Positions 2,114-27,295 of a stretch of 32,000 nt of DNA are shown here, in pieces. The DNA comes from an uncultured Chloroflexia bacterium (GTDB lineage: Bacteria; Chloroflexota; Anaerolineae; Anaerolineales; Anaerolineaceae): assembly GCA_963704755.1 (NCBI GenBank), contig OY969938.1:2610001-2642000 (forward strand), written 5' to 3'. Under the pieces are notes generated by a model. It ran no database searches. It saw nothing but the letters and a program-made list of their open reading frames with translations, and was not told where the DNA came from. The translations under genes and the position numbers were made by a program. Position 1 is the stretch's first letter; every line of letters begins with the position of its first letter.

Positions 2114-2917
2114 ATGAACGAAAATTTGACTCCTCGCGCTGATTCGACCCATTCACGGCGGTTGATCCGAAAGTCTGCGCCGCTATCCCCAGCAGTGGGT
2201 ATACTTCTTTTGGCCATCTTTTTCGGTTTTGGGGTAGGTACAGGTTACCTGGTCTGGGGCCGGCAGTTGGCCGCTGTCCAACTCCAATTAAGCCAGGCCA
2301 ACGGCAATTCAGCCGATAACCCGGTGGATGTGGCCCAACAAGGCACTGCGGATCCCAATGGAATCCAGCAGGTAACCCGCTACCCGGTCAGCGAGGATGA
2401 CGACCCGGTTTACGGGCCGGCCGATGCGCCTATTACGATCATCGAATTCAGTGACTTCGAATGTCCTTACTGCCTGAAATGGGAAAACGAAGTCTGGCCC
2501 CAGTTGAAAGAACAATACGCCGGGAAGATCCGCCTGGTATACCGCGATTTTCCGCTGGCCGGTCACGCCGATGCCAAACCGGCCGCCCTGGCCGCCGACT
2601 GCGCCAACGAGCAAGGCAAATACTGGGAATATCACGATTTGCTCTTCGATGGCGGCCTGACTCTCAGCCGCACTACGTATGAAACCTATGCCAGCCAGAT
2701 CGGCTTGAACATGGATAGCTTCCGCCAGTGTCTTGACGATCAGCGCTACGCCAGCGAGGTGGAGGGCGACCTGCAATACGCCGAAAACCTGGGGGTCCAG
2801 GCGACTCCCACCTTTTTCGTCAACGGCATCGCTGTAGTTGGCGCCCAACCCTTTGAAATCTTCAAAAATTTGATCGACGCAGAACTGGCCGGCAAACTTT
2901 CAAAGGGGACCAAATGA
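2114..2917 (+). CDS. Membrane-anchored DsbA-family thiol:disulfide oxidoreductase
   Basis: 267 aa. N-terminal TM helix (AVGILLLAIFFGFGVGTGYLVW), thioredoxin CxxC site FECPYC, and DsbA-like C-terminal half (GVQATPTFFVNG). Confidence 0.85.
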   Translation: MNENLTPRADSTHSRRLIRKSAPLSPAVGILLLAIFFGFGVGTGYLVWGRQLAAVQLQLSQANGNSADNPVDVAQQGTADPNGIQQVTRYPVSEDDDPVYGPADAPITIIEFSDFECPYCLKWENEVWPQLKEQYAGKIRLVYRDFPLAGHADAKPAALAADCANEQGKYWEYHDLLFDGGLTLSRTTYETYASQIGLNMDSFRQCLDDQRYASEVEGDLQYAENLGVQATPTFFVNGIAVVGAQPFEIFKNLIDAELAGKLSKGTK

Positions 2918-3576
2918 AAAAATTCATTGCCGTCGCCGGAAATATCGGCGTTGGCAAATCGACCCTGGTGCAGCTCTTGTGCGAACAGCTTGGCTGGGAG
3001 CCCTTTTTCGAGCCGGTCACCGGGAACCCCTACCTGGCTGATTTTTACGACAACATGTCCGCCTGGAGTTTTCATTCCCAGGTATTCTTCCTGACCCATC
3101 GCTTGCGCATCCACCAGCAAATTTTGCGCTTCGAAGGACCGGTCATCCAGGACCGCAGCATCTACGAGGACGCTGAAATCTTCGCTCACAACCTGGCCTT
3201 GCAGGGCAACATGAGCGAGCGTGATTACCAGACCTATTACGCGCTGTACCAGACCATTTCAGATTTTATTCCCCCACCCGACCTGGTGATTTACCTGCGG
3301 GCTTCGGTAAACACCCTCAAACAGCGCATTTCTCAACGCGACCGCTCCTACGAGCGGTCCATTTCTGCCGAATATTTAGGCGGCTTGAATGAGCTTTACG
3401 AGCAATGGATCCGCAACTTCACCATTTGCCCGGTCCTGACCGTGCCGGCCGATGACCTGGATTACGTCGCCCATCCTAATCACCTGGACCTGATCTTGAA
3501 GAAAGTGCAGGACAAACTCACCGGGAAAGAAGAAGTGGTCTTCCTGCCGGAAGAGATGAGCGAGCCGGAGATCTGA
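2914..3576 (+). CDS. Deoxynucleoside kinase (dNK family), paralog 1
   Basis: 220 aa. P-loop GNIGVGKST at the N-terminus, plus dNK-family blocks (FFEPV..NPYL..FY, DRSIYED, YLRASV..RISQRDRSYE). ATG 2914 overlaps the upstream stop (ATGA). Confidence 0.85.
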   Translation: MKKFIAVAGNIGVGKSTLVQLLCEQLGWEPFFEPVTGNPYLADFYDNMSAWSFHSQVFFLTHRLRIHQQILRFEGPVIQDRSIYEDAEIFAHNLALQGNMSERDYQTYYALYQTISDFIPPPDLVIYLRASVNTLKQRISQRDRSYERSISAEYLGGLNELYEQWIRNFTICPVLTVPADDLDYVAHPNHLDLILKKVQDKLTGKEEVVFLPEEMSEPEI

Positions 3577-3640
3577 GACCCAAGCCAGACCTATAGATAT
3601 GTCCTCGTTGAGCTTGCTCGAACCGGTGAAGGTTAACCCT

Positions 3641-3687
3641 AATTAGCGTTGTTTGTGGGCACAGAGAGTCCACAAACAACGCTAATT
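3641..3687. terminator. Long hairpin between convergent genes (probable bidirectional terminator)
   Basis: aattagcgttgtttgtgg (3641-3658) pairs perfectly with ccacaaacaacgctaatt (3670-3687): an 18-bp stem with an 11-nt loop, flanked by partially pairing ggttaacc. It lies between the dNK stop (3576) and the spoVS stop (3741). Confidence 0.5.
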
Positions 3688-3740
3688 GGTTAACTTGTTC
3701 AGGGGGTAAATATCTTGCCCCCTCTTTGATTCGCTACCCC

Positions 3741-4001
3741 TTAGCGAGGTTCGACAGTCAGCTTGATCGCTGTCCGCACTTTCCCATCAATGTCCACATC
3801 TACAAACTCGGGGATACAAACCACCGGTATGCCGTCTTCAGCTAGATAGCCTTTAGCCAACACCAACGCTTTGACAGCCTGATTTACGGCCCCTGCCCCA
3901 ATCGCCTGCACTTCGGCACGTTTATGTTCGCGTATTACGCCTGCTATCGCCCCTGCAACTGCAGCTGTTCGGGAGTTTGCTTTGACCTTGATGACGTCCA
4001 T
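3741..4001 (-). CDS. spoVS: Stage V sporulation protein S (SpoVS) family protein
   Basis: MDVIKVKANSRTAAVAGAIAGVIREHKRAEVQAIGAGAVNQAVKALVLAKGYLAEDGIPVVCIPEFVDVDIDGKVRTAIKLTVEPR is collinear with B. subtilis SpoVS as I recall it. The start was moved from the track's 4037 to ATG 4001 (86 aa), which has AGAAAGGAA upstream. Confidence 0.9.
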   Translation of the reverse strand: MDVIKVKANSRTAAVAGAIAGVIREHKRAEVQAIGAGAVNQAVKALVLAKGYLAEDGIPVVCIPEFVDVDIDGKVRTAIKLTVEPR

Positions 4002-4577
4002 GTCATGAATTCCTTTCTGTGATTGGTTCGATGTCAAGCAAACGATCTACGGAAATGTAATCATCTACTAAGTCTGTCGACATTGTACAAGAATTGCTAG
4101 ATAGTTACAAGTGCGCTGATAATGTACCAAAATATTACTATTCGTGATTCCATATGATGCAATAGGCTGCTTTCGTTCTTTTTTTTCCACAACCAGTAAA
4201 TTCTTAATCGTTTTTGCAGCCAGGCCCCTTTCTGCATAGTCTGGCCGGTATTTGCCTTCAAATCCAGGCAGGCCGGGTTGAAAAAACTGATTTGTTTTTG
4301 ACCAGGTCGATCCGCCAGTTGCAAAGTCCGTTTATCCGCATTTGCGCTGCGCTTCGATCACCAAAAATCCTGCACGTTTTGCTGTATAAGCGAGGTTCCA
4401 ACCCGGTGAACTGTTTTTCAACCAGAAAACAACCGGATCAGTCCAATTTCTGTTTAGAATTCGTCATAGCCGTAGCCATCCTTATCTTTATTTTGAATTT
4501 TAAGTTTGGCGGCCTGCTTTTGGGTTCATTATTCTTTCTCTTTATAAATATAAAGGAGTTGTAAACGTAGTAGGGGC

Positions 4578-4594
4578 TGTGGATATGTGGATAA
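4578..4594 (-). promoter_or_regulatory. Two abutting DnaA boxes (ATATCCACA and TTATCCACA on the minus strand)
   Basis: The plus strand reads tgtggataTgtggataa. It is preceded by GGGGC (4573-4577), TAGTAG (4568-4573) and the AT-rich tract. Confidence 0.6.
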
Positions 4595-4758
4595 AGCTGC
4601 GCAATTCAGTAATACCGGAATATATGGGGATCTCTAAATGGTTTACCCCCACTTCTAGGATAGAAAAACTGTTCCTTTATGAGAGCGAGCCTGTGGAGAA
4701 ATTTTTTCCAGAAAACACATTATCCACCTCCTCCACAGGGAAAATGATATACAGGCCT

Positions 4759-4800
4759 ACAAAGGCAGCGACCCCCATATATGGGGGTCGCTGCCTTTGT
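4759..4800. repeat. Perfect 40-42 bp palindrome inside the DnaA-box region
   Basis: caaaggcagcgaccccca-tata-tgggggtcgctgcctttg. Every position from 4760 to 4799 pairs with its mirror, checked base by base. Confidence 0.9.
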
Positions 4801-4833
4801 CTGGTAAAGAGTTATTCTGTTGTTTTTTCGAAG

Positions 4834-4883
4834 TTATCCACAGATCTACCTGTTTATCCACAGTTTTTGGCGAGTTATCCACA
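4834..4883 (+). promoter_or_regulatory. Three direct perfect DnaA boxes (TTATCCACAG x3) spaced 20 and 21 bp
   Basis: Read directly at 4834-4842, 4854-4862 and 4875-4883. The spacing is about two helical turns. Confidence 0.65.
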
Positions 4884-4940
4884 GGCCCGGGGAAAATAAG
4901 AACCTGGTGGGGAAAAACCGCCAGGCCGTATGTGGGTACC

Positions 4941-6001: not shown

Positions 6002-6658
6002 TTACTCGGCAATCCCATTGGAGGACTGCATAGGCAGTTCGGGTTGGAAAGGCGGCAGCTCAAGGGTTTGGCGGATGCGGTTCTCGATCCAATCCAGGTC
6101 GCGTGAATTGCGGACAAAGTCCAGCTCGTTCGATTCGATGACCAGTACGGGTCGCTTCGGCCGGCCGGTGATGTAAAAATCATCGTAGGCCTGGTTCAGC
6201 TCGACAATATAATCCTGCGCCATATTCCGCTCGTAGGGGCGGTCGCGTAAGGCGATCCGCTGCATGAGCACTTCGGTGCTGGCGCGCAGGTAAACCACCA
6301 GGGCGGGGGTGACCATTTTTTCGGCCAGCGCTTCGTGTACCCGGTAGTACATTTCCAACTCATCGCCCTGCAGGTTGGTCCGGGCGAATAAGGCGTCTTT
6401 TTCAAAGGTGTAGTCGCCGATCAAATTCGGGTTTTGTTCCAGCAGATTGGGGACATTACGGTTTTGCTGGTGGTAGCGGCTGAGCAGAAAGAAGATCTGG
6501 GTCTGGAAGGCGTAGCGGGCCCGATCCGCATAGAAATTGCTCAGGAAAGGGTTTTCTTCAAATACTTCAAGCAGCAGGTTGGATTCAAAACGCGGCTGTA
6601 ACAGGCGGGCCAGGGTTGTTTTACCCACTCCAATTACGCCTTCGATGGCAAAATACAT
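6002..6658 (-). CDS. Deoxynucleoside kinase (dNK family), paralog 2
   Basis: 218 aa. P-loop IEGVIGVGKTT, plus EENPFLSNFY, GDYTFEKD and YLRAS..RIALRDRPYE blocks collinear with paralog 1. Confidence 0.85.
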   Translation of the reverse strand: MYFAIEGVIGVGKTTLARLLQPRFESNLLLEVFEENPFLSNFYADRARYAFQTQIFFLLSRYHQQNRNVPNLLEQNPNLIGDYTFEKDALFARTNLQGDELEMYYRVHEALAEKMVTPALVVYLRASTEVLMQRIALRDRPYERNMAQDYIVELNQAYDDFYITGRPKRPVLVIESNELDFVRNSRDLDWIENRIRQTLELPPFQPELPMQSSNGIAE

Positions 6659-7760: not shown

Positions 7761-7850
7761 ACCAAAGCAAAATTATACCCTTAAGAGCAGGTGTTGAAAA
7801 ACACCTGCTCTTTTACGCCGGCTGGGTAGTTATGATTCGATATCGTATTT

Positions 7851-8240: not shown

Positions 8241-8303
8241 GAGGGGTGTTTTTTATTGTTTTTCGCGTACGAAGTACGCGAAAAACAATAAAAAACACCC
8301 CTC
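8241..8303. repeat. 63-nt perfect palindrome (30-bp stem, GAA loop), family P1 copy 1
   Basis: gaggggtgttttttattgtttttcgcgtac-gaa-gtacgcgaaaaacaataaaaaacacccctc, with all 30 pairs checked. It lies between mrp-like and ferredoxin genes, both on the minus strand. Confidence 0.9.
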
Positions 8304-8359: not shown

Positions 8360-9421
8360 TTATCCCGTGCGGATAGCCGCTACCCGCAAAATGCGCTCGA
8401 TCACCGGACCCAGCCCATCCATGTGGGCCTGCTCTACCTGGCCCTGGTCGCACAGGATCGTCAGGGCAGAATTGATCGGCAGCCGGCAGACTACCTCGGT
8501 GCCGGCCATTTCGGCGACTTCGCCGGCGTGGCTGGGACCAAATATCTCGTGCGGTGAGCCGCTATCCGGGCAGGTGTAATAGCTAAAGTTCTCCACGATG
8601 CCCAGGATGGGAATTTGCAAATTTTGCAGCATGTGCACGGCCTTACGCACTACCAGCGCCGCCAAGCCCTGGGGCGAGGTGACCAGCACCACCCCGTTGA
8701 GGGGCAGGTTTTGAATGACCGTAATAGCCGCATCCGAGGTTCCCGGCGGCAAATCCACCAGCAAAACGTCCAGCTTGCCCCACAGCACCTCGTTCCAGAA
8801 CTGGCGGATAACACCCGAGATCATCGGCCCGCGCCAGATCACGGCCGTGTCCTCCTCGGGTACCAGCAGGTTGGAAGAGACCACCCGGATGCCGCCGGGT
8901 GTAATCGCCGGCAGGATGCCCTGGTCGTTGCCGCGCAGCCCGCCGGCCGGCAGGTTGAACAGGCGCGGGATGCTCGGGCCGGTCAGGTCGGCGTCCAGGA
9001 TGCCCACTTTTTTGCCCTGGCGGGCCAGCTCCACGGCCAGCAAAGCGGTCACGGAAGATTTGCCCACCCCGCCTTTGCCGCTCATCACCGCGATGACTCG
9101 CTGGATGCGGTTAAAGATGTTCAATTTGGGTAACTGGGGAGCCGCCATGCCGATCACGGCCCGGCGCTCCTCATCGGTCATTTCGCCGTAGGTCACCTGC
9201 ACCTGGCTCACCCCCGGGTAGGCCTTGAGAAGCTGTTCGGCATTGAAGGCCATCTGGTCCTTGAGCGGGCAGTTCGGCGTAGTCAACGCCAGGGTAAAGT
9301 CAATTTTCCCGGACGGGTCGATTTTCAGGTCACGCACCATCCCCAGCTCGATCACGCTGCGGCCAAGCTCCGGGTCGACCACTTTTTTGAGGACTTCACG
9401 GACTTCCGATTCGCTAATCAT
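8360..9421 (-). CDS. Mrp/NBP35/ApbC-family Fe-S cluster carrier ATPase with N-terminal DUF59-like domain
   Basis: 353 aa. Deviant Walker A SGKGGVGKSS, an N-terminal MIP18/DUF59-like segment (VLKKVVDPELGRSVIELGMV), and family-typical ILDADLTGPSIP. Confidence 0.85.
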   Translation of the reverse strand: MISESEVREVLKKVVDPELGRSVIELGMVRDLKIDPSGKIDFTLALTTPNCPLKDQMAFNAEQLLKAYPGVSQVQVTYGEMTDEERRAVIGMAAPQLPKLNIFNRIQRVIAVMSGKGGVGKSSVTALLAVELARQGKKVGILDADLTGPSIPRLFNLPAGGLRGNDQGILPAITPGGIRVVSSNLLVPEEDTAVIWRGPMISGVIRQFWNEVLWGKLDVLLVDLPPGTSDAAITVIQNLPLNGVVLVTSPQGLAALVVRKAVHMLQNLQIPILGIVENFSYYTCPDSGSPHEIFGPSHAGEVAEMAGTEVVCRLPINSALTILCDQGQVEQAHMDGLGPVIERILRVAAIRTG

Positions 9422-14290: not shown

Positions 14291-14358
14291 ATCGAAGCAG
14301 AGGGATAAAAAAAATCGGGCGGTTATTCCGCCCGATTTTTTTATCCCTCTGCTTCGAT
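14291..14358. repeat. About 31-bp-stem palindrome whose right arm is the 3' end of the HAD hydrolase CDS
   Basis: atcgaagcagagggataaaaaaaatcgggcgg-ttatt-ccgcccgatttttttatccctctgcttcgat (A8 versus T7, so one bulge). The right arm encodes ...IEAEG-stop of the 14341-15048 gene. Confidence 0.85.
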
Positions 14359-15075: not shown

Positions 15076-15124
15076 TTTGGGTGTTTGTTTTGGGCGGCGT
15101 AGCCGCCCAAAACAAACACCCAAA
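15076..15124. repeat. 23-bp-stem perfect palindrome centred on GCGTAGC (family P2 copy 1)
   Basis: tttgggtgtttgttttgggcggc-gta-gccgcccaaaacaaacacccaaa. It lies directly upstream of the HAD gene start. Confidence 0.9.
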
Positions 15125-15190: not shown

Positions 15191-15362
15191 GGCGGATCAT
15201 CTATGTAGGGTGCGTTGATAACGCACCAATTTGTTTGGCTCCAAGCTGCTTCTTGGTTGAAAAAACCGTTTGGCCGAAATTTATCCGCTACCCCGTATAA
15301 ATAATTACAAAGCGTTTTGGTGCGTTGCCAACGCACCCTACATCCGCGCCGCACACGCGCCC
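15191..15362 (+). mobile_element. REPIN/MITE-like element copy 1 (two inverted GTAG-hairpin REPs about 110 nt apart)
   Basis: The left end is ggcggatcatctatGTAGggtgcgtt-gat-aacgcacc. The right end is ggtgcgtt-gcc-aacgcaccCTACatccgcgccgcacacgcgccc. The first 48 nt are identical to copy 2, and the interior is diverged. Confidence 0.65.
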
Positions 15363-15519
15363 GGTCTGAATGGCGTTGCCGGCGAAGCAGGCGGCTATTC
15401 AGCGTAGATGTGGAGATTGCTTTCTGCTTCACTCCTGCGCCGGACAGGGAAAATGTGGACCATGCCGATAAAGGCACCCATGCGGTTTATCTCGTCGCAC
15501 CGGCGAGCAGAACTTAACG

Positions 15520-15557
15520 CCTTATCCCTCCCAGGGAGAAGGCGGGGATGAGGGTGG
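15520..15557 (+). repeat. Solo degenerate copy of the polypyrimidine/polypurine hairpin plus GGATGAGGG motif (family C)
   Basis: ccttatccctcccagggagaaggcggggatgagggtgg. Compare ccttcccccttttagggggaaggccgggatgagggt in the 22-23 kb array. Confidence 0.6.
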
Positions 15558-15625: not shown

Positions 15626-15796
15626 GGCGGATCATCTATGTAGGGTGCGTTGATAACGCACCAATTTGTTTGGCGAAGAACAAAAATCGGGTAACAAAAC
15701 CCGTTTGGCTGCGTTTCCTTCCAACCCGGCACACATGATTACAAAGCGTTTTGGTGCGTTGCCAACGCACCTTACATCCGCGCCGCACACGCGCCC
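15626..15796 (+). mobile_element. REPIN/MITE-like element copy 2
   Basis: It has the same 48-nt left end and the same approximately 59-nt right end (one C/T difference in ...aacgcacc[c/t]tacat...) as copy 1, in the same orientation, 435 bp downstream. Confidence 0.65.
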
Positions 15797-17459: not shown

Positions 17460-19493
17460 CTATTGGCCGAACGGGATGGTAAACTGCACCTTCGTCCCCC
17501 GGCCGGGTGCACTTTCGATCTGGATCTGGCCCCGGTTTTGGGCGGCCCGTTCGCGCATGGTGCGCAGCCCGAGGTGACCGGGGTAATCCGCGCCGGCATC
17601 AAAGCCGCTTCCATTATCGACGACTTCCAGGCATAGCTGCTGGCCATCGCAGGTCAAGGCCAGGCTCACCTGGGTGGCATGCGCATGCCGGATGATGTTT
17701 TGGGTCGCTTCCTGGGCGACCCGGTACACCGCTTCCTTGACGGCCAGCGGCACCGGCGGTTCCTGGCCCAGGTCCACCTGCACGTCCAGGTCATAGCGCG
17801 CCCGCAGCACGGCGGCTTGCTTTTCCAGCGCCACTACCAGCCCGTCGATGCGCAGCGATTCGGGCCGCAGCTCGAAGATCAGGGCGCGCATTTCCACCTG
17901 ACCGGCCTCGGCCAGGTGGCTGACGTAATCCAGCGCGTCCGCGGTCTGGGCCGGGTCGCGGGTGGTATCCAGCGCGGCGCGGGCAGCCTTGGCGCCCAGC
18001 CCGATGCTGTACAGCACCTGCGAGACCGAGTCGTGCAGTTCACGCGCCAGCCGCTGGCGCTCTTCCAGCACGGCCAGTTGGCCGGCCTGCTCGTACAGGC
18101 GCGCGTTTTCGATGGCGGTGGCTACCTGCTGGGCAAAGGCCAGGGCCAGGTGGGCGTCTTCGGGCTGGTAATACTGCGGGTCACGATGGACGAAGGCGAA
18201 CATGCCCATGGCCTGGTCCTTGACTACCAGCGGGATACCCATCCAGCAGGTCCTGGCGGCATACAGCCCGTCGGCGTTCCAGTCGTGGACGATCACCGGC
18301 TGGCGCGAAACGATCGCCTGGTCCATGTGAAACTCATCCAGCAGCGAAAACAGGCGCCCGTCTCCGGCCGGCGGCATCGAGCCGGCCTGGCTGACCAGCA
18401 CCAGCCGGCCGGCATCGTCCAGCCGGAAAATATTGGCCGCGTTGTAATCGATCACGTTTTTCATTTCGGCCAGGATCTGCGCTAACAGCGGCTCCAGGGC
18501 CAGGGTCGAACTGACCCGCTGGGAGACGGCCAGCAGGGTGGATAGCTCGCGGGTGCGTTCCTCCACGCGCTGCTCCAATTCCTGGCGAGCGGCGGCGATC
18601 TCACGGGTGCGCTGAGCCACAGCCTGGGCCAGGCGGCCCTGCCGGTTGACGGTCAGGTAAACCACCCCGGTGGCCAGCAAGAGGATGGCCAGGCTGCCCA
18701 GGCGAAAAAGCGTTTCCTGGGGCTGGACCGGCGCTTCCCATCCGCCTTGGGGCACCCCGCCTAACTGCCAGGCGCCCTCCGGCAGCTCGATTTGCTGGCT
18801 GGCCGGATCCTGCTGCCACAGGTCGTTCGGGCCGAAAAAGGTATGGCCGTTATTATCTTGCAAAGCCACGTTCAGCCCGCTCAGCGGGTCGCTCAGGCCC
18901 GAATCGGCCAGGATGGTGTGCATATCCAGGGCAATCGAGACCAGCCCCCACAGGTCCTTGCCGCGATAGACAGCCCGCCAGGCGGTCAGGCCGAAACCGC
19001 CCTGGCGCAACTGGCCTGGCTGGCTCATGGTGATCTGGCGGGTATGGATGGCGCGCTGCACGTCGGCGCGGGTGTCCGGGTCGGGGTCGTTGAGGATGTC
19101 GTAGCCGCTTAGCGTTTGGGTATCAAAGAGCGGGTAGATATAGCGGGCGATACCTTCCGGGGCGATCATCAGTGTGCGCAGGCCGGTCGAGTTGAAGTAC
19201 AACCCGGATGAGTAAATTTCGAAAGGTTCGTCGAAATGGGTATCCGGCCATTCGGTGCGGGTAAAAGCGTACAGCCCCTGCAGCAGGGCGATGCGCTGGT
19301 TAACGGCCGAGGTCAGCGCGTTGGCACGGGCCGAAATCTGCTCGGCCACCTTGGCCCGTTCCTGTTTGATCAGGCTGCCGCGGTACCAGTTGCCCAGCCA
19401 CAACCAGGCCGGCAGCAGGACCAGCAGGGTGAGCAGTGCAGCCAGCAGGGCTCCTCCGCGCGGAGTGTGGAACGCTTTCAACAGCCGTTTCAT
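17460..19493 (-). CDS. Sensor histidine kinase: TM, CHASE-like periplasmic domain, TM, coiled coil, GAF, HisKA_3, HATPase_c
   Basis: 677 aa. NarL-type H-box LARELHDSVSQVLYSI, ATPase motifs (VVDNGSGF, GLRTMRERA), a GAF-like block before the H-box, and an extracytoplasmic region between two hydrophobic helices. Confidence 0.85.
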   Translation of the reverse strand: MKRLLKAFHTPRGGALLAALLTLLVLLPAWLWLGNWYRGSLIKQERAKVAEQISARANALTSAVNQRIALLQGLYAFTRTEWPDTHFDEPFEIYSSGLYFNSTGLRTLMIAPEGIARYIYPLFDTQTLSGYDILNDPDPDTRADVQRAIHTRQITMSQPGQLRQGGFGLTAWRAVYRGKDLWGLVSIALDMHTILADSGLSDPLSGLNVALQDNNGHTFFGPNDLWQQDPASQQIELPEGAWQLGGVPQGGWEAPVQPQETLFRLGSLAILLLATGVVYLTVNRQGRLAQAVAQRTREIAAARQELEQRVEERTRELSTLLAVSQRVSSTLALEPLLAQILAEMKNVIDYNAANIFRLDDAGRLVLVSQAGSMPPAGDGRLFSLLDEFHMDQAIVSRQPVIVHDWNADGLYAARTCWMGIPLVVKDQAMGMFAFVHRDPQYYQPEDAHLALAFAQQVATAIENARLYEQAGQLAVLEERQRLARELHDSVSQVLYSIGLGAKAARAALDTTRDPAQTADALDYVSHLAEAGQVEMRALIFELRPESLRIDGLVVALEKQAAVLRARYDLDVQVDLGQEPPVPLAVKEAVYRVAQEATQNIIRHAHATQVSLALTCDGQQLCLEVVDNGSGFDAGADYPGHLGLRTMRERAAQNRGQIQIESAPGRGTKVQFTIPFGQ

Positions 19494-20137
19494 AGCGGCG
19501 GTTCTTCTTCCGTTTTCACCAGCCCGTTACGTACGGCGATGAGAGCCGCCTGGGTGCGGCTGGTCACGCCGAGTTTAATGAAAATGTTGCTCACGTGTAC
19601 TTTGACCGTCTTTTCAGCGATGGATAACTCCAGGGCGATTTCCTTGTTGGAGCGGCCGCGGGCGATCTGGTGCAGAACGGCGGACTCGCGCTCGGTCAGG
19701 CTGTCGATGGAGGAGGCTTGCTCCTCACCGGCCGTCAGGCGCAGCGCCACCTGCCTGGAAAGCTGCACCTGCCCCGCGGCGGCGGCGTGAATCGCCCGGC
19801 ACAGTTCGTCCGAGCCGGTGTCTTTTAACAGGTACCCGGATGCCCCGGCGTGAATGGCCTGGTGAATGATGGCGTCGTCGAGTACGCTGGTCAGGATAAT
19901 GACTTCGCAGTCCGGCAGCGTCCGGCGGATGGCAGCGGTGGCTTCCAGCCCGTCCATAACCGGCATCAAAATGTCCATCAAGATGACGTCCGGGTGCAGC
20001 TTTTCGGCCTGCTCCAGCGCTTCTTTACCATTCGAAGCCTCTCCCACCACCGTTAAATCCGGATCGAATTTGAGATACATGCGCAGACCCTGGCGCACGA
20101 TGCCGTGGTCGTCTGCAATCAAGATACGGATCGCCAT
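19490..20137 (-). CDS. NarL/LuxR-family response regulator
   Basis: 215 aa. REC domain (ILIADDHGIVR...ILMDILMP) and LuxR HTH (LTERESAVLHQIARGRSNKEIALELSIAEKTVKVHVSNIFIKLGV). AAGGAG lies 6 nt upstream. There is an ATGA overlap with the kinase gene. Confidence 0.9.
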   Translation of the reverse strand: MAIRILIADDHGIVRQGLRMYLKFDPDLTVVGEASNGKEALEQAEKLHPDVILMDILMPVMDGLEATAAIRRTLPDCEVIILTSVLDDAIIHQAIHAGASGYLLKDTGSDELCRAIHAAAAGQVQLSRQVALRLTAGEEQASSIDSLTERESAVLHQIARGRSNKEIALELSIAEKTVKVHVSNIFIKLGVTSRTQAALIAVRNGLVKTEEEPPL

Positions 20138-20169
20138 TTTGGCTCCTTACTAAGCGATTATAACTTGCG

Positions 20170-21137
20170 TTTCCTCGGTTTAGAAACCCGAGCTACACAA
20201 TACCGTAGCCCGGCTTTCAAAGCCGGGGTCTGGAGACAGGCTTGGGTCTCGAATCCTGGTGATACCCCTCGGGTTAGAAACCCGAGCTACGTGCGGGTAC
20301 GTAGCCCGGCTTTCAAAGCCGGGGGGTCTGGAGACAGGCCTGGGACTCGAATCCCAGTGATACCCCTCGGGTTAGAAACCCGAGCTACGTGCCGGTACCG
20401 TAGCCCGGCTTTCAAAGCCGGGGGGTCTGGAGGCTGGCCCGGATGCCACCTTTCTGAGACGAGATTTCTGCAATTGTTAAACGCAAATCCTGGTGATACT
20501 ACACAATACCGTAGCCCGGCTTTCAAAGCCGGGGGGTCTGGAGGCGAGCCTGGGTCTCGAATCCCGGTGATACCTCTCGGGTTAGAAACCCGAGCTACGT
20601 GCGGGTACGTAGCCCGGCTTTCAAAGCCGGGGGGTCTGGAGGCGGGCCTGGATGCCACCATTCCGAGACGAGAAATCAAAAATTGTTAAACGCGAATCCC
20701 GGTGATACCTCTCGGGTTAGAAACCCGAGCTACGTGCGGGTACGTAGCCCGGCTTTCAAAGCCGGGGGGTCTGGAGGCGGGCCTGGATGCCACCATTCCG
20801 AGACGAGAAATCAAAAATTGTTAAACGCAAATCCCGGTGATACCTCTCGGGTTAGAAACCCGAGCTACACAATACCGTAGCCCGGCTTTCAAAGCCGGGG
20901 GGTCTGGAGGCTGGCCCGGATGTCACCTTTCTGAGACGAGATTTCTGCAATTGTTAAACGCAAATCCTGGTGATACCTCTCGGGTTAGAAACCCGAGCTA
21001 CATACCAATATCGTAGCCCGGCTTTCAAAGCCGGGGGGTCTGGAGACGGGCCTGGATGCCACCATTCCGAGACGAGAAGTCAACAATTGTTAAACTCGAA
21101 TCCTGGTGATACCTCTCGGGTTAGAAACCCGAGCTAC
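20170..21137. repeat. BIME-like mosaic array: 8 head-to-head REP-like hairpin doublets (…CTAC-N8-11-GTAG…) joined by short or long linkers
   Basis: Hairpin H2 (GTAG-cccggctt-tca-aagccggg) starts at 20205, 20301, 20400, 20511, 20609, 20744, 20877 and 21013. Hairpin H1 (ctcgggtt-aga-aacccgag-CTAC) precedes seven of these (it is absent before 20511) and one extra copy closes the array at about 21115. Unit lengths are 96-136 nt, not multiples of 3. Units 20576-20710 and 20711-20845 differ at 1 nt. Confidence 0.85.
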
Positions 21138-21347
21138 CCTTTCCAGACATTTTCTGATCGTACTGGCTAGCTACAAATCATTATAGTGTCTATTGGGGGC
21201 AGAACGACTAGGACCAAAGGCTTAGGCCGCTATAGACCTTCTCCAGTTGTACCGCCGGCCGGGCGCGACTATACTGCATATACAGTCTTTTCCCTTTACG
21301 AGAATCGCCCTTTTAAGGGAATTGCTAATCAACACAGGAGAGAACGC

Positions 21348-22007
21348 ATGAAAAAAGCTTCTATTGGTTTTATTTGGGTTTTGATCGCAGTCTTTTCAAT
21401 CGTCTTATCGGCTTGCGCAACGCAGGCTAATGCCAGCAACCCGACCGCAGCCCCCACCCAGGCGGATACGCCCGTCCCGGCGGCGACAACCGCCCCCCAG
21501 GCGACCGACATTGTCTCAACCCCGACCGCACCGGTAACCAGCCAACCCACCACGTTGGATAGCTACTCGGACCCGTTTTCCTACTGCGCGGCGGTCGGGA
21601 CGATCGATGCACCGGACGCGCGCTATACCGGCGATGCGGTACCGGATGTGGTCATCCAGGGCTACCTTAAGGCAGCCGGCCTGGAGAACAACGGCGAGCC
21701 GATTGAAATCCTGCAAAAGACGACCATCTGGCGCTGTATGGACAAATCGGTATATGTGTGCAATTTTGGCGCGAACCTGCCTTGCAATTCCAAGGCCAAT
21801 ACCGACAAAACGCCTACCCAGGCCATGAACGATTTCTGCACGGCTAACCCCGATTCGGATAGCATCCCGATGAGCGTGACCGGCCATTCGACGATCTATG
21901 ACTGGCACTGCGTCAAGGATACCCCCGAGCTGCTCGACCAGATCGACCAGGTCGATGCCGCCGGTTACCTGACGCGGATCTGGTACCAGCTCCAACCCGG
22001 GTCATAA
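21348..22007 (+). CDS. Secreted lipoprotein of unknown family (Thr/Pro/Ala linker plus 6-Cys C-terminal domain)
   Basis: The start was moved to ATG 21348 (AGGAGAG upstream). Signal peptide MKKASIGFIWVLIAVFSIVLSAC with lipobox L-S-A-C. A low-complexity linker is followed by a domain with 6 Cys. No homolog recognised. Confidence 0.7.
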   Translation: MKKASIGFIWVLIAVFSIVLSACATQANASNPTAAPTQADTPVPAATTAPQATDIVSTPTAPVTSQPTTLDSYSDPFSYCAAVGTIDAPDARYTGDAVPDVVIQGYLKAAGLENNGEPIEILQKTTIWRCMDKSVYVCNFGANLPCNSKANTDKTPTQAMNDFCTANPDSDSIPMSVTGHSTIYDWHCVKDTPELLDQIDQVDAAGYLTRIWYQLQPGS

Positions 22008-22059: not shown

Positions 22060-23225
22060 ATGTTCCAAGCCTCATCCTAATCCGCCAGGGCGTTTGCCTG
22101 CCTGCCGCGCCCCTCACCTGACCTCTCCCCGCCGGGAATAGGAATTTTGCCGCGAAGGTGAGGCCAATGACCGATGAACGCGCGAAGCCAACAAATTCTT
22201 GCTCCTTCCCCCTTTTAGGGGGAAGGCCGGGATGAGGGTCTGCGCCGGCCCGCCAGGGCGTTTGCCTGCCTGCCGCGCCCCTCACCTGACCGCTCCCCGC
22301 CGGGAACTTTTCCGCGAAGGCGAGGCCAATGACCGGTGAACGCGCGAAGCCAACAAATTCTTGCTCCTTCCCCCTTTTAGGGGGAAGGCCGGGATGAGGG
22401 TCTGCGCAGGCCCGCCAGAGCGTTCGCCTGCCGGCTGCGCCCCTCACCTGACCTCTCCCCGCCGGGGACTTTTCCGCGAAGGTGAGGCCAATGACCGATG
22501 AACGCGCGAAGCCAACAAATTCTTGCTCCTTCCCCCTTTTAGGGGGAAGGCCGGGATGAGGGTCTGCGCCGGCCCGCCAGGGCGTTCGCCTGCCGGCTGC
22601 GCCCCTCACCTGACCTCTCCCCGCCGGGAACTTTTCCGCGAAGGTGAGGCCAATGACCGATGAACGCGCGAAGCCAACAAATTCTTGCTCCTTCCCCCTT
22701 TTAGGGGGAAGGCCGGGATGAGGGTCTGCGCCGGCCCGCCAGAGCGTTTGCCTGCCTGCCGCGCCCTTCACCTGACCTCTCCCCGCCGGGAATAGGAATT
22801 TTGCCGCGAAGGTGAGGCCAATGACCGATGAACGCGCGAAGCCAACAAATTCTTGCTCCTTCCCCCTTTTAGGGGGAAGGCCGGGATGAGGGTCTGCGCC
22901 GGCCCGCCAGGGCGTTTGCCTGCCGGCCGCGCCCCTCACCTGACCTCTCCCCGCCGGGGACTTTTCCGCGAAGGTGAGGCCAATGACCGATGAACGCGCG
23001 AAGCCAACAAATTCTTGCTCCTTCCCCCTTTTAGGGTGAAGGCCGGGATGAGGGTCTGCGCAGGCCCGCCAGGGCGTTTGCCTGCTGGCCGCGCCCCTCA
23101 CCTGACCTCGCCCCGCCGGGGACTTTTCCACGAAGGTGAGGCCAATGATTGATGCATGGGTAACGCCTACAAATTCTTACTCCTTCCCCCTTTTAGGGGG
23201 AAGGCCGGGATGAGGGTCAACGCAG
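22060..23225. repeat. Seven tandem copies of a 162/168-bp structured repeat
   Basis: Units start (ccgccag...) at 22082, 22250, 22412, 22574, 22736, 22904 and 23066. Each contains the hairpin ccttccccct-ttt-agggggaagg, the motif ccgggatgagggt, and an 8-bp long-range stem cctcacct...aggtgagg that encloses tcccc-gcc-gggga. Confidence 0.9.
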
Positions 23226-24885: not shown

Positions 24886-24942
24886 GGGGTGTTTTTATTG
24901 TTTTTCGCGTGCGAAGCACGCGAAAAACAATAAAAACACCCT
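24886..24942. repeat. Palindrome family P1 copy 2 (26-bp stem, GAA loop)
   Basis: gggtgtttttattgtttttcgcgtgc-gaa-gcacgcgaaaaacaataaaaacaccc. It is homologous to 8241-8303 with mirrored differences. Confidence 0.9.
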
Positions 24943-27250: not shown

Positions 27251-27295
27251 TTTTGAGTGTTATTGTGGGGCGTAGCCCCACAATAACACTCAAAA
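27251..27295. repeat. 21-bp-stem perfect palindrome centred on GCGTAGC (family P2 copy 2)
   Basis: ttttgagtgttattgtggggc-gta-gccccacaataacactcaaaa, in the divergent MarR/MCP intergenic region. Confidence 0.9.

Follow-up and report, generated by a model that had tools for sequence, protein, structure and literature searches.

What is the block of short hairpins that fills the divergent promoter region between a NarL/LuxR-type response regulator gene and a lipoprotein-like gene in this genome, and how did it come to lie there? The DNA that we examined (the window) is the 32,000-nucleotide stretch of contig OY969938.1, that is, 32 kb of a 4.87-Mb genome, and the block in question spans ~965 bp of it (20174-21137). 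We favour the reading that it is a cluster of GTAG-tagged repetitive extragenic palindrome (REP) heterodimers in the group-3 format, resembling a bacterial interspersed mosaic element (BIME), which was inserted at the -10 box of the regulator gene in an Anaerolineae-like (Chloroflexota) genome and was then expanded in place. We give this reading as a whole a probability of about 0.62.

Read directly, the block opens with a lone H1-CTAC and continues with eight GTAG...CTAC inverted-doublet units, each laid out around the hairpins H2 and H1 (Table 1). The H2 23-mer GTAGCCCGGCTTTCAAAGCCGGG was found in eight exact copies and the H1 23-mer CTCGGGTTAGAAACCCGAGCTAC in eight copies as well (seven exact and one with one mismatch), all of them on the + strand and all inside the block. 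No copy of either 23-mer was found elsewhere in the 32-kb window, and 100 shuffles put the expected number at 0. Both H2 and H1, the latter read on the - strand, consist of GTAG plus a perfect 8-bp stem and a 3-nt loop (23 nt in total), and the GTAG tag by which the GTAG-tagged REP superfamily is recognised is carried by all 16 hairpins of the array. An earlier note made from the letters of the window alone (the original prediction) had stated that 18 of 23 positions are the same in H2 and the reverse complement of H1, the stem differences forming two mirrored, compensatory pairs, and that CTAC-spacer-GTAG forms a third stem; we could read the former directly, and the third stem folds.

The same note had counted eight H1-spacer-H2 units, one of them without H1. 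Eight copies of each hairpin are indeed present and the H2 at 20511 has lost its H1, but only seven doublets are complete when counted in this way, and not every H1 is paired with a following H2, the last one (21115-21137) having none. Since the array opens with a lone H1 at its left end and closes exactly on CTAC at its right end, the natural unit is GTAG-H2-linker-H1-CTAC. The right array boundary is also the first base of a short-read Logan contig (L002) from the same organism.

Tandem Repeats Finder detected periods of 98 and 135 in the array, and cutting it at the TGATACC tail yields pieces of 98, 98, 136, 74 (without H1), 135, 135, 133 and 136 nt plus the terminal H1. There are two classes of doublet unit, a short one of 86/88 nt and a long one of exactly 125 nt; the latter equals the short unit with ~37 nt added where the central linker hairpin has its tip. 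The linkers measure 40-42 and 79 nt rather than the ~38 and ~75 nt first proposed, and they follow each other in the order that had been given (S S L1 S L2 L2 L1 L2'). The spacers with GTAG inside (TT) vary between 8 and 11 nt, whereas the outside (HH) linkers are conserved in their two length classes. Unit 2 folds as single-stranded DNA at -24.8 kcal/mol (z -5.3).

Several features of the array speak to how it grew. The junction spacers between units are themselves repeated, with ACAATACC and GTGCGGGTAC each present three times and GTGCCGGTACC and ATACCAATATC once each. In addition, the two 135-nt periods that hold units 5 and 6 differ at a single base, as originally noted, which indicates a recent tandem duplication of these two units, to judge from their near-identity. 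That junction-plus-unit blocks recur and that neighbours are nearly identical shows that the array has grown in place by tandem duplication.

The hairpins have the format of a REP that has been defined biochemically. The group-3 TnpA-REP of Stenotrophomonas maltophilia acts on a 23-nt substrate (SMAG / REP_Sm) with an 8-bp perfect palindrome, a 3-nt loop and GTAG directly before it; this enzyme cleaves at a CT dinucleotide, cleavage needs GTAG, and activity needs a perfect stem (Corneloup et al. 2021, PMC8266576). The array hairpins share the identical 23-nt format and the arrangement in inverted dimers with these group-3 REPtron REPs. They differ from them in belonging to another phylum, in having unrelated stem sequences, and in that eight tandem doublets are piled up at one locus, in a window without a cognate TnpA-REP gene. 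A CT dinucleotide is found 6-7 nt 3' of every H2 and in every partner CTAC, which fits cleavage by a REP-associated tyrosine transposase (RAYT) but is not diagnostic of it.

Eight phyla, Chloroflexi and Verrucomicrobia among them, are reported to have GTAG REPs (Di Nocera et al. 2013, PMC3733652). According to this survey, dimers are frequent and often heterodimeric, TT spacers (GTAG inside) are as a rule variable and HH spacers conserved, and large clusters consist of dimers that are tandemly reiterated along with flanking DNA. The array combines all three marks of such inverted dimers, namely variable GTAG-inside spacers, conserved GTAG-outside spacers and tandem reiteration, and its building block is a heterodimeric inverted doublet, which corresponds to the "HH dimer" or REPIN (REP doublet forming a hairpin) of the literature. 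The GTAG-23 REPs of the Chloroflexi Thermomicrobium roseum and Roseiflexus castenholzii (PMC3733652) resemble the array in phylum, in the GTAG tag and in being mostly "grouped" as large blocks at a small number of loci, a likeness drawn from their description. The T. roseum elements sit in CCGSSCC(n3,4)GGSSCGG palindromes, none of which was seen in the array. The novelty implied by the original prediction was overstated, since GTAG REPs, clustered ones included, had already been described in Chloroflexi (PMC3733652). That the genome is not proteobacterial was borne out by the homologues of the flanking lipoprotein, the few of which that carry an organism name are assigned to an Anaerolineales bacterium or a Chloroflexi bacterium.

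Like E. coli BIMEs, the array is reiterated in tandem and has REPs in alternating orientation, with two subtypes (Y/Z in E. coli) in each dimer and linkers that are either short or long. However, the palindromes of E. coli REPs are imperfect and contain a bulge (group 2), whereas the array stems are perfect, and the E. coli linker motifs are unrelated to those of the array, whose long linker carries the 37-nt insertion. We therefore rejected assignment to the E. coli type on account of the perfect stems and unrelated linkers and call the array BIME-like by architecture only. To this extent the identification as a REP/BIME system stood: its anatomy (GTAG next to a perfect palindrome, two inverted subtypes, mosaic short and long linkers, and the spacer rule of PMC3733652) was upheld. 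Pseudomonas fluorescens REPINs are likewise inverted REP doublets with their GTAG ends outside that can be folded as one long hairpin, a description that applies in part to the array unit; they differ in being single doublets dispersed in hundreds of copies and tied to a RAYT, while the array is known at one locus.

How the block came to lie where it does could be read from orthologous loci. Four independent metagenomic relatives (L060, L061, L069 and L071) have kept the same three genes together, for a CHASE-GAF-HisKA_3 kinase, for a regulator of the NarL type and, in divergent orientation, for the lipoprotein; their kinases are ~65-70% identical to that of the window. In all four, the intergenic region is 169-172 bp long, contains no array and has a fixed layout. 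With the start codon of the regulator as the reference point, ATTATA, which reads TATAAT on the strand of the regulator, lies at +22/23, an operator-like TAGGACCAAAGRCYTAG at +51/52, with its core GACCAAAG starting at +54/55 (inexact in L071), and TATACT at +112/113. The window retains every one of these ancestral spacings (ATTATA, GACCAAAG, TATACT) but split across the two sides of the block, which is why we read the block as an insertion. In the right flank, GACCAAAG follows 32 nt and TATACT 90 nt from ATTATAG, exactly as in the relatives, and the two copies of the -10 hexamer enclose ~1023 bp, made up of 11 nt, the array and 43 nt.

It had been proposed that the array must contain or displace the promoters of both neighbours. 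This holds for neither -10 box: to the right of the array, the lipoprotein promoter, with its TATACT, and the operator-like site stand intact with their ancestral spacing, and the regulator operon has kept a -10 box and Shine-Dalgarno site on the left. What does hold is that the link between the presumed operator and the regulator operon has been stretched by ~1 kb. A consensus scan found no promoter-like or terminator-like site in 19900-21500. The operator-like motif keeps a strictly fixed spacing to both -10 boxes in the four distant relatives, and it is probably the binding site of the NarL-type regulator. The operator-like TAGGACCAAAGRCYTAG plus AGACCTTCTCC was also seen as a longer stretch at 21209-21245 of the window, at 5877-5912 of L060, and in L061, L069 and L071.

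The hexamer ATTATA is all that is demonstrable on both sides of the array. A longer target duplication was not detected, as local alignment of the left and right flanks was not significant (162/500 shuffles scored as well). The right flank GCTACAAATCATTATAGTGT and the junction GCTACATACCAATATCGTAG are alike at 15/20 positions, a resemblance noticed post hoc that hints that flank DNA may have been co-amplified with the array. The contexts of paralogous lipoprotein genes were uninformative about the insertion site. A miniature inverted-repeat transposable element is unlikely, because no terminal inverted repeats were seen by eye at the borders of the insert.

Under the favoured reading, one GTAG-H2-linker-H1-CTAC doublet, or a short DNA carrying such a doublet, would have entered the -10 region of the regulator gene, a Y1/HUH RAYT, whose gene would lie elsewhere in the genome, presumably having mobilised it as single-stranded DNA. 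The block then enlarged in place through tandem duplication of unit-plus-junction blocks, by unequal recombination or by replication slippage. As a result, the two-component operon would now lie ~1 kb away from both the ancestral -10 box and the conserved operator-like site, and it might be read either from the left -10 copy without an operator or from the right copy via a ~1-kb hairpin-rich leader (the - strand of the array), while the lipoprotein promoter would have been left untouched.

A bolder version of this scenario would make the block more than selfish DNA. The REP cluster, variable in copy number, would have been co-opted as a ~1-kb structured leader or insulator that splits the conserved operator and the ancestral -10 box from the operon of the CHASE-GAF kinase and NarL regulator, and so rewires or tunes autoregulation, and GTAG palindromes would multiply in this genome one locus at a time, each locus having a sequence of its own, instead of forming a single dispersed family. 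We regard this version, taken as a whole, as distinctly unlikely.

The position of the block next to a LuxR/NarL-type regulator operon and a conserved operator-like motif also raises the question of whether it is an array of protein-binding sites, in which each repeat of the palindromes or linkers would offer a site to the adjacent NarL-type regulator, to a partition protein or, as in E. coli BIMEs, to a nucleoid protein or gyrase, and would have been selected for a role in regulation or in organising the chromosome. Several proteins are reported to bind to E. coli BIMEs (PMC2817692), and direct reading showed one or two GGTCT/AGACC pentamers per unit that occur in the operator-like motif as well. 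However, the match of the pentamers is a weak one that was spotted in hindsight, and the operator-like TAGGACCAAAGRCYTAG itself is absent from the units. The orthologous loci function without an array, on a spacer of 170 bp, and there are no genes for partition in the vicinity; the ParA-family member at 8360-9421 is of the Mrp/NUBPL Fe-S type. We consider a protein-binding array highly improbable.

A hairpin search of the window revealed a second GTAG family (family B), a ~140-nt inverted doublet with its GTAG ends outside (GTAG-GGTGCGTTGATAACGCACC, an 87-nt spacer, GGTGCGTTGCCAACGCACC-CTAC) that is unrelated in sequence to H1/H2. Its two copies lie 435 bp apart in a 950-bp divergent region between an HAD hydrolase gene and an NDH-2 gene; their first 49 nt are 100% identical and the remainder 79%. 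As single-stranded DNA, the doublet folds strongly into a single long hairpin (-35 kcal/mol, z -6.7), as P. fluorescens REPINs also can. The GTAG tag is present on 3/4 family B arms. Both GTAG loci, the array and family B, are extragenic, as REPs by definition are, and each is located between a pair of divergent genes, the rarer configuration.

The format shared by the two families is far more frequent than chance would predict. Outside the array, the window contains three GTAG + perfect 8/3/8 hairpins, compared to 0.055 expected from dinucleotide shuffles. Among the 20 perfect hairpins with a stem of at least 8 bp outside the array, the only intergenic ones of 8/3/8 geometry are the four family B arms, all of which carry GTAG or GTAA. 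In contrast, no GTAG 8/3/8 hairpin was found in ~126 kb from Anaerolineales-like relatives, even with one mismatch allowed. These counts suggest that such hairpins are a genome-specific habit. When five distinct 23-mers were aligned, 100% of the cells were paired, 5/8 pairs changed on both sides and no G-T pair was present. Because the family B and Prosthecobacter hairpins (the latter described below) were ascertained as perfect hairpins, the H1/H2 comparison alone gives unbiased covariation. Stem length (6-13 bp in the REP superfamily), small loop and complementary stem changes between subfamilies are all as in that superfamily.

Several results weigh against the array being a REP cluster. 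No Y1/RAYT gene was present among the open reading frames (ORFs) scanned in the 32-kb window. A scan of 185,579 GTDB species genomes with the pattern GTAGCYCGGSTTTCWAASCCGRG, which covers both subtypes, matched one locus, a similar REP in a Prosthecobacter metagenome-assembled genome; it gave no second H1/H2 locus, the visibility of the source genome in that set being unverified. If the source genome were in the scanned set with only the window masked, H1/H2 would be confined to the array locus. In JGI metagenomes, the pattern CCCGAGCTACN{6,13}GTAGCCCGG, which proved too loose, gave 57 matches, all of them chance and none with the hairpins, and there were no matches in the IMG/VR viral scan (0), in blastn searches of plasmids and phages, or in a comparison of a spurious ORF across the array with 5.8 billion proteins. 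High copy number and dispersal, by which classical REPs are recognised, are thus unproven here, since no second H1/H2 locus turned up in the window or the collections, and the array may lack them. REPs are mostly reported downstream of genes, and a divergent promoter region is their least common location. Finally, a hexamer is duplicated at the borders of the insert, and single-strand transposition of the IS200/IS605 type does not produce such duplications.

The Prosthecobacter locus (JBILYB010000028.1; L001 2667-2757) holds a REP-like inverted doublet, GTAGCTCGGCTTTCAAAGCCGAG ... CTAC, between convergent genes. The arms of this verrucomicrobial doublet are GTAG-CTCGGCTTTCAAAGCCGAG ... CTCGGCTCTGGAGAGCCAAG-CTAC, the left one matching H2 at 21/23 positions, and no RAYT gene is next to it; the likeness could be cross-phylum REP similarity or chance. 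When all 0.49 Mb of the loci fetched and the array-masked window were searched with a profile of the unit (nhmmer), this Prosthecobacter hairpin alone was recovered. The negative searches for H1/H2 hint that this family is locus-restricted. The source proteins had no relative at ≥90% identity.

Since all searches outside the locus were negative, the block might instead be an orphan local minisatellite, in which a unit rich in palindromes came into being or landed there a single time and was then amplified by recombination or slippage only, with no RAYT, no dispersed family, and a vestigial or coincidental GTAG. The duplication of spacer-plus-unit blocks and the near-identity of units 5 and 6 would be expected of such a repeat, as would the purely local duplication of family B, 435 bp apart. 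That this genome readily amplifies intergenic repeats is seen at a distance of 1 kb, where there is a third tandem array, one without GTAG. What a minisatellite leaves unaccounted for is that three sequence-unrelated hairpins (H1/H2 and the two B arms) have the exact 23-nt GTAG + 8/3/8 format of an experimentally defined RAYT substrate. This format is absent from the relatives' 126 kb, and the excess in the window (three, against the 0.055 expected) makes coincidence unlikely. On balance, we find this explanation rather unlikely.

We also weighed whether the block encodes structured RNA, for example an array of tRNA-Sec-like or tRNA-derived genes on the + strand. In such a gene, CTAC-spacer-GTAG would form the D-arm, and H2, with UUUCAAA in its loop, would be the anticodon arm (anticodon UCA). 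A long variable arm, a hairpin resembling a T-arm and the tail UGAUACC would come next. The units do resemble tRNA-Sec (RF01852) in that a 6-7-bp hairpin is followed by one with a 6-bp stem and the loop UUUCAAA, by a long extra arm and by a hairpin containing UCGAAUCC, and several of them gave weak matches to the covariance model, the best with 28.2 bits (E = 0.0044 in a 1.4-kb search). However, this is a resemblance only: 28.2 bits is far under the gathering threshold of 47, the acceptor stem is unformed (5/9 pairs non-standard), ARAGORN found 0 tRNA genes, and neither eight tandem copies nor a 37-nt insertion in the "T-loop" of half of the units is in keeping with tRNA-Sec. On these scores, bits, acceptor pairs and ARAGORN, membership in tRNA or tRNA-Sec was rejected. 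The + strand folds slightly better than the - strand (-48.4 compared to -44.7 kcal/mol), an advantage that is due to G-U pairs in the linker hairpin, and the z-score is ~-3.9 on both strands, as DNA palindromes would give; the REP stems have no G-T pair. No promoter-like site was found in or upstream of the array on the + strand, and the sole conserved promoter facing the array would transcribe the - strand. No homologue was found in any collection searched, so cross-species covariation is not available. In the whole window, Rfam gave nothing at the gathering score, and permissive E-values returned only sub-threshold tRNA-Sec, Acido-Lenti-1 and microRNA matches. A gene array for structured RNA is, in our view, very unlikely. 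The block is not a CRISPR array either, which would have 24-48-bp repeats and unique spacers of similar size, as the units of the block are 86-125 nt long and its spacers 8-11 nt, several of them repeated.

Selfish GTAG repeats of this kind are already known, including in Chloroflexi, and the array is real, non-random and fairly ordinary, and no new kind of element. With it, the hosts of GTAG-tagged REPs come to include an Anaerolineae-like lineage, in which the 23-nt "GTAG + 8/3/8" format that was defined biochemically in Stenotrophomonas recurs. Because the orthologous loci are conserved, the empty site can be reconstructed to the base, which makes the locus a clean natural case of promoter invasion by a REP cluster: a -10 hexamer stands on either side, the operator has been shifted by 1 kb, and the neighbour's promoter is intact. 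The locus could be used to study the start, growth and regulatory effect of REP clusters, and its interest comes mainly from this reconstructable invasion and from the possible locus-by-locus multiplication of such palindromes in the genome.

Table 1. Coordinates in the window of the array, its flanking promoter elements and genes, and the family B doublets.
Feature	Position	Strand	Remarks
NarL/LuxR-type response regulator gene	19490-20137	-	left neighbour
Left -10 hexamer copy	20157-20162	-	TATAAT on the - strand; ancestral distance +22 from regulator ATG; AGGAG Shine-Dalgarno retained
Lone H1 REP	20174-20196	-	left cluster edge; 1 mismatch; GTAG end toward right
Doublet unit 1	20205-20290	+	short, 86 nt; GTAG-H2, 40-nt linker, H1-CTAC
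Doublet unit 2	20301-20388	+	short, 88 nt
Doublet unit 3	20400-20502	+	long linker L1; truncated, H1 deleted, only TAC (20500-20502) left
Doublet unit 4	20511-20598	+	short, 88 nt
Doublet unit 5	20609-20733	+	long L2, 125 nt
Doublet unit 6	20744-20868	+	long L2, 125 nt
Doublet unit 7	20877-21001	+	long L1, 125 nt
Doublet unit 8	21013-21137	+	long L2', 125 nt; CTAC is the cluster end
Junction spacer ACAATACC	20197-20204, 20503-20510, 20869-20876		
Junction spacer GTGCGGGTAC	20291-20300, 20599-20608, 20734-20743		
Junction spacer GTGCCGGTACC	20389-20399		
Junction spacer ATACCAATATC	21002-21012		
Right -10 hexamer copy ATTATAG	21180-21186	-	ancestral 22 nt from operator-like motif
Operator-like motif TAGGACCAAAGGCTTAG	21209-21225		kept in four orthologous loci
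TATACT	21270-21275	+	conserved -10-like hexamer of lipoprotein gene; ancestral spacing
Lipoprotein-like gene	21348-22007	+	right neighbour; no Pfam family, many homologues
Family B doublet copy 1	15205-15343		wider repeat 15191-15362
Family B doublet copy 2	15640-15777		right tag mutated to TTAC; wider repeat 15626-15796

The window contains further repeats. The third tandem array (22082-23218), directly downstream of the lipoprotein gene, comprises 6.9 copies of a 162-bp unit that are 93% matching, and this unit consists of a 10-bp-stem hairpin, CCTTCCCCCTTTTAGGGGGAAGG, followed by CCGGGATGAGGGT. A 371-amino-acid ORF that runs across this array on the - strand looks spurious, being an Arg/Gly/Ala-rich repeat with no Pfam match. 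A solitary copy of the hairpin + GGGATGAGGGT module of the 162-bp array, 77% identical, lies at 15517-15555, between the two family B doublets, and the module thus occurs at at least two loci.

Unusually long perfect intergenic palindromes (stems of 13-30 bp, loops of 3-5 nt) were found at 4759-4800, 7783-7812, 8241-8303, 14308-14342, 15076-15124, 24887-24941 and 27251-27295. Those at 8250, 24892 and 27251 form one sequence family, AT-rich with a GC-rich tip such as GGCGGCGTAGCCGCC, and the palindromes look like bidirectional terminators or another repeat family. A low-GC stretch (3580-4940; 43% compared to ~56% for the window) carries a spoVS homologue (3741-4037, - strand) and several short ORFs without a Pfam match. 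Two deoxynucleoside kinase (dNK) paralogues, at 2914-3576 and 6002-6658, lie within 3 kb of each other on opposite strands.

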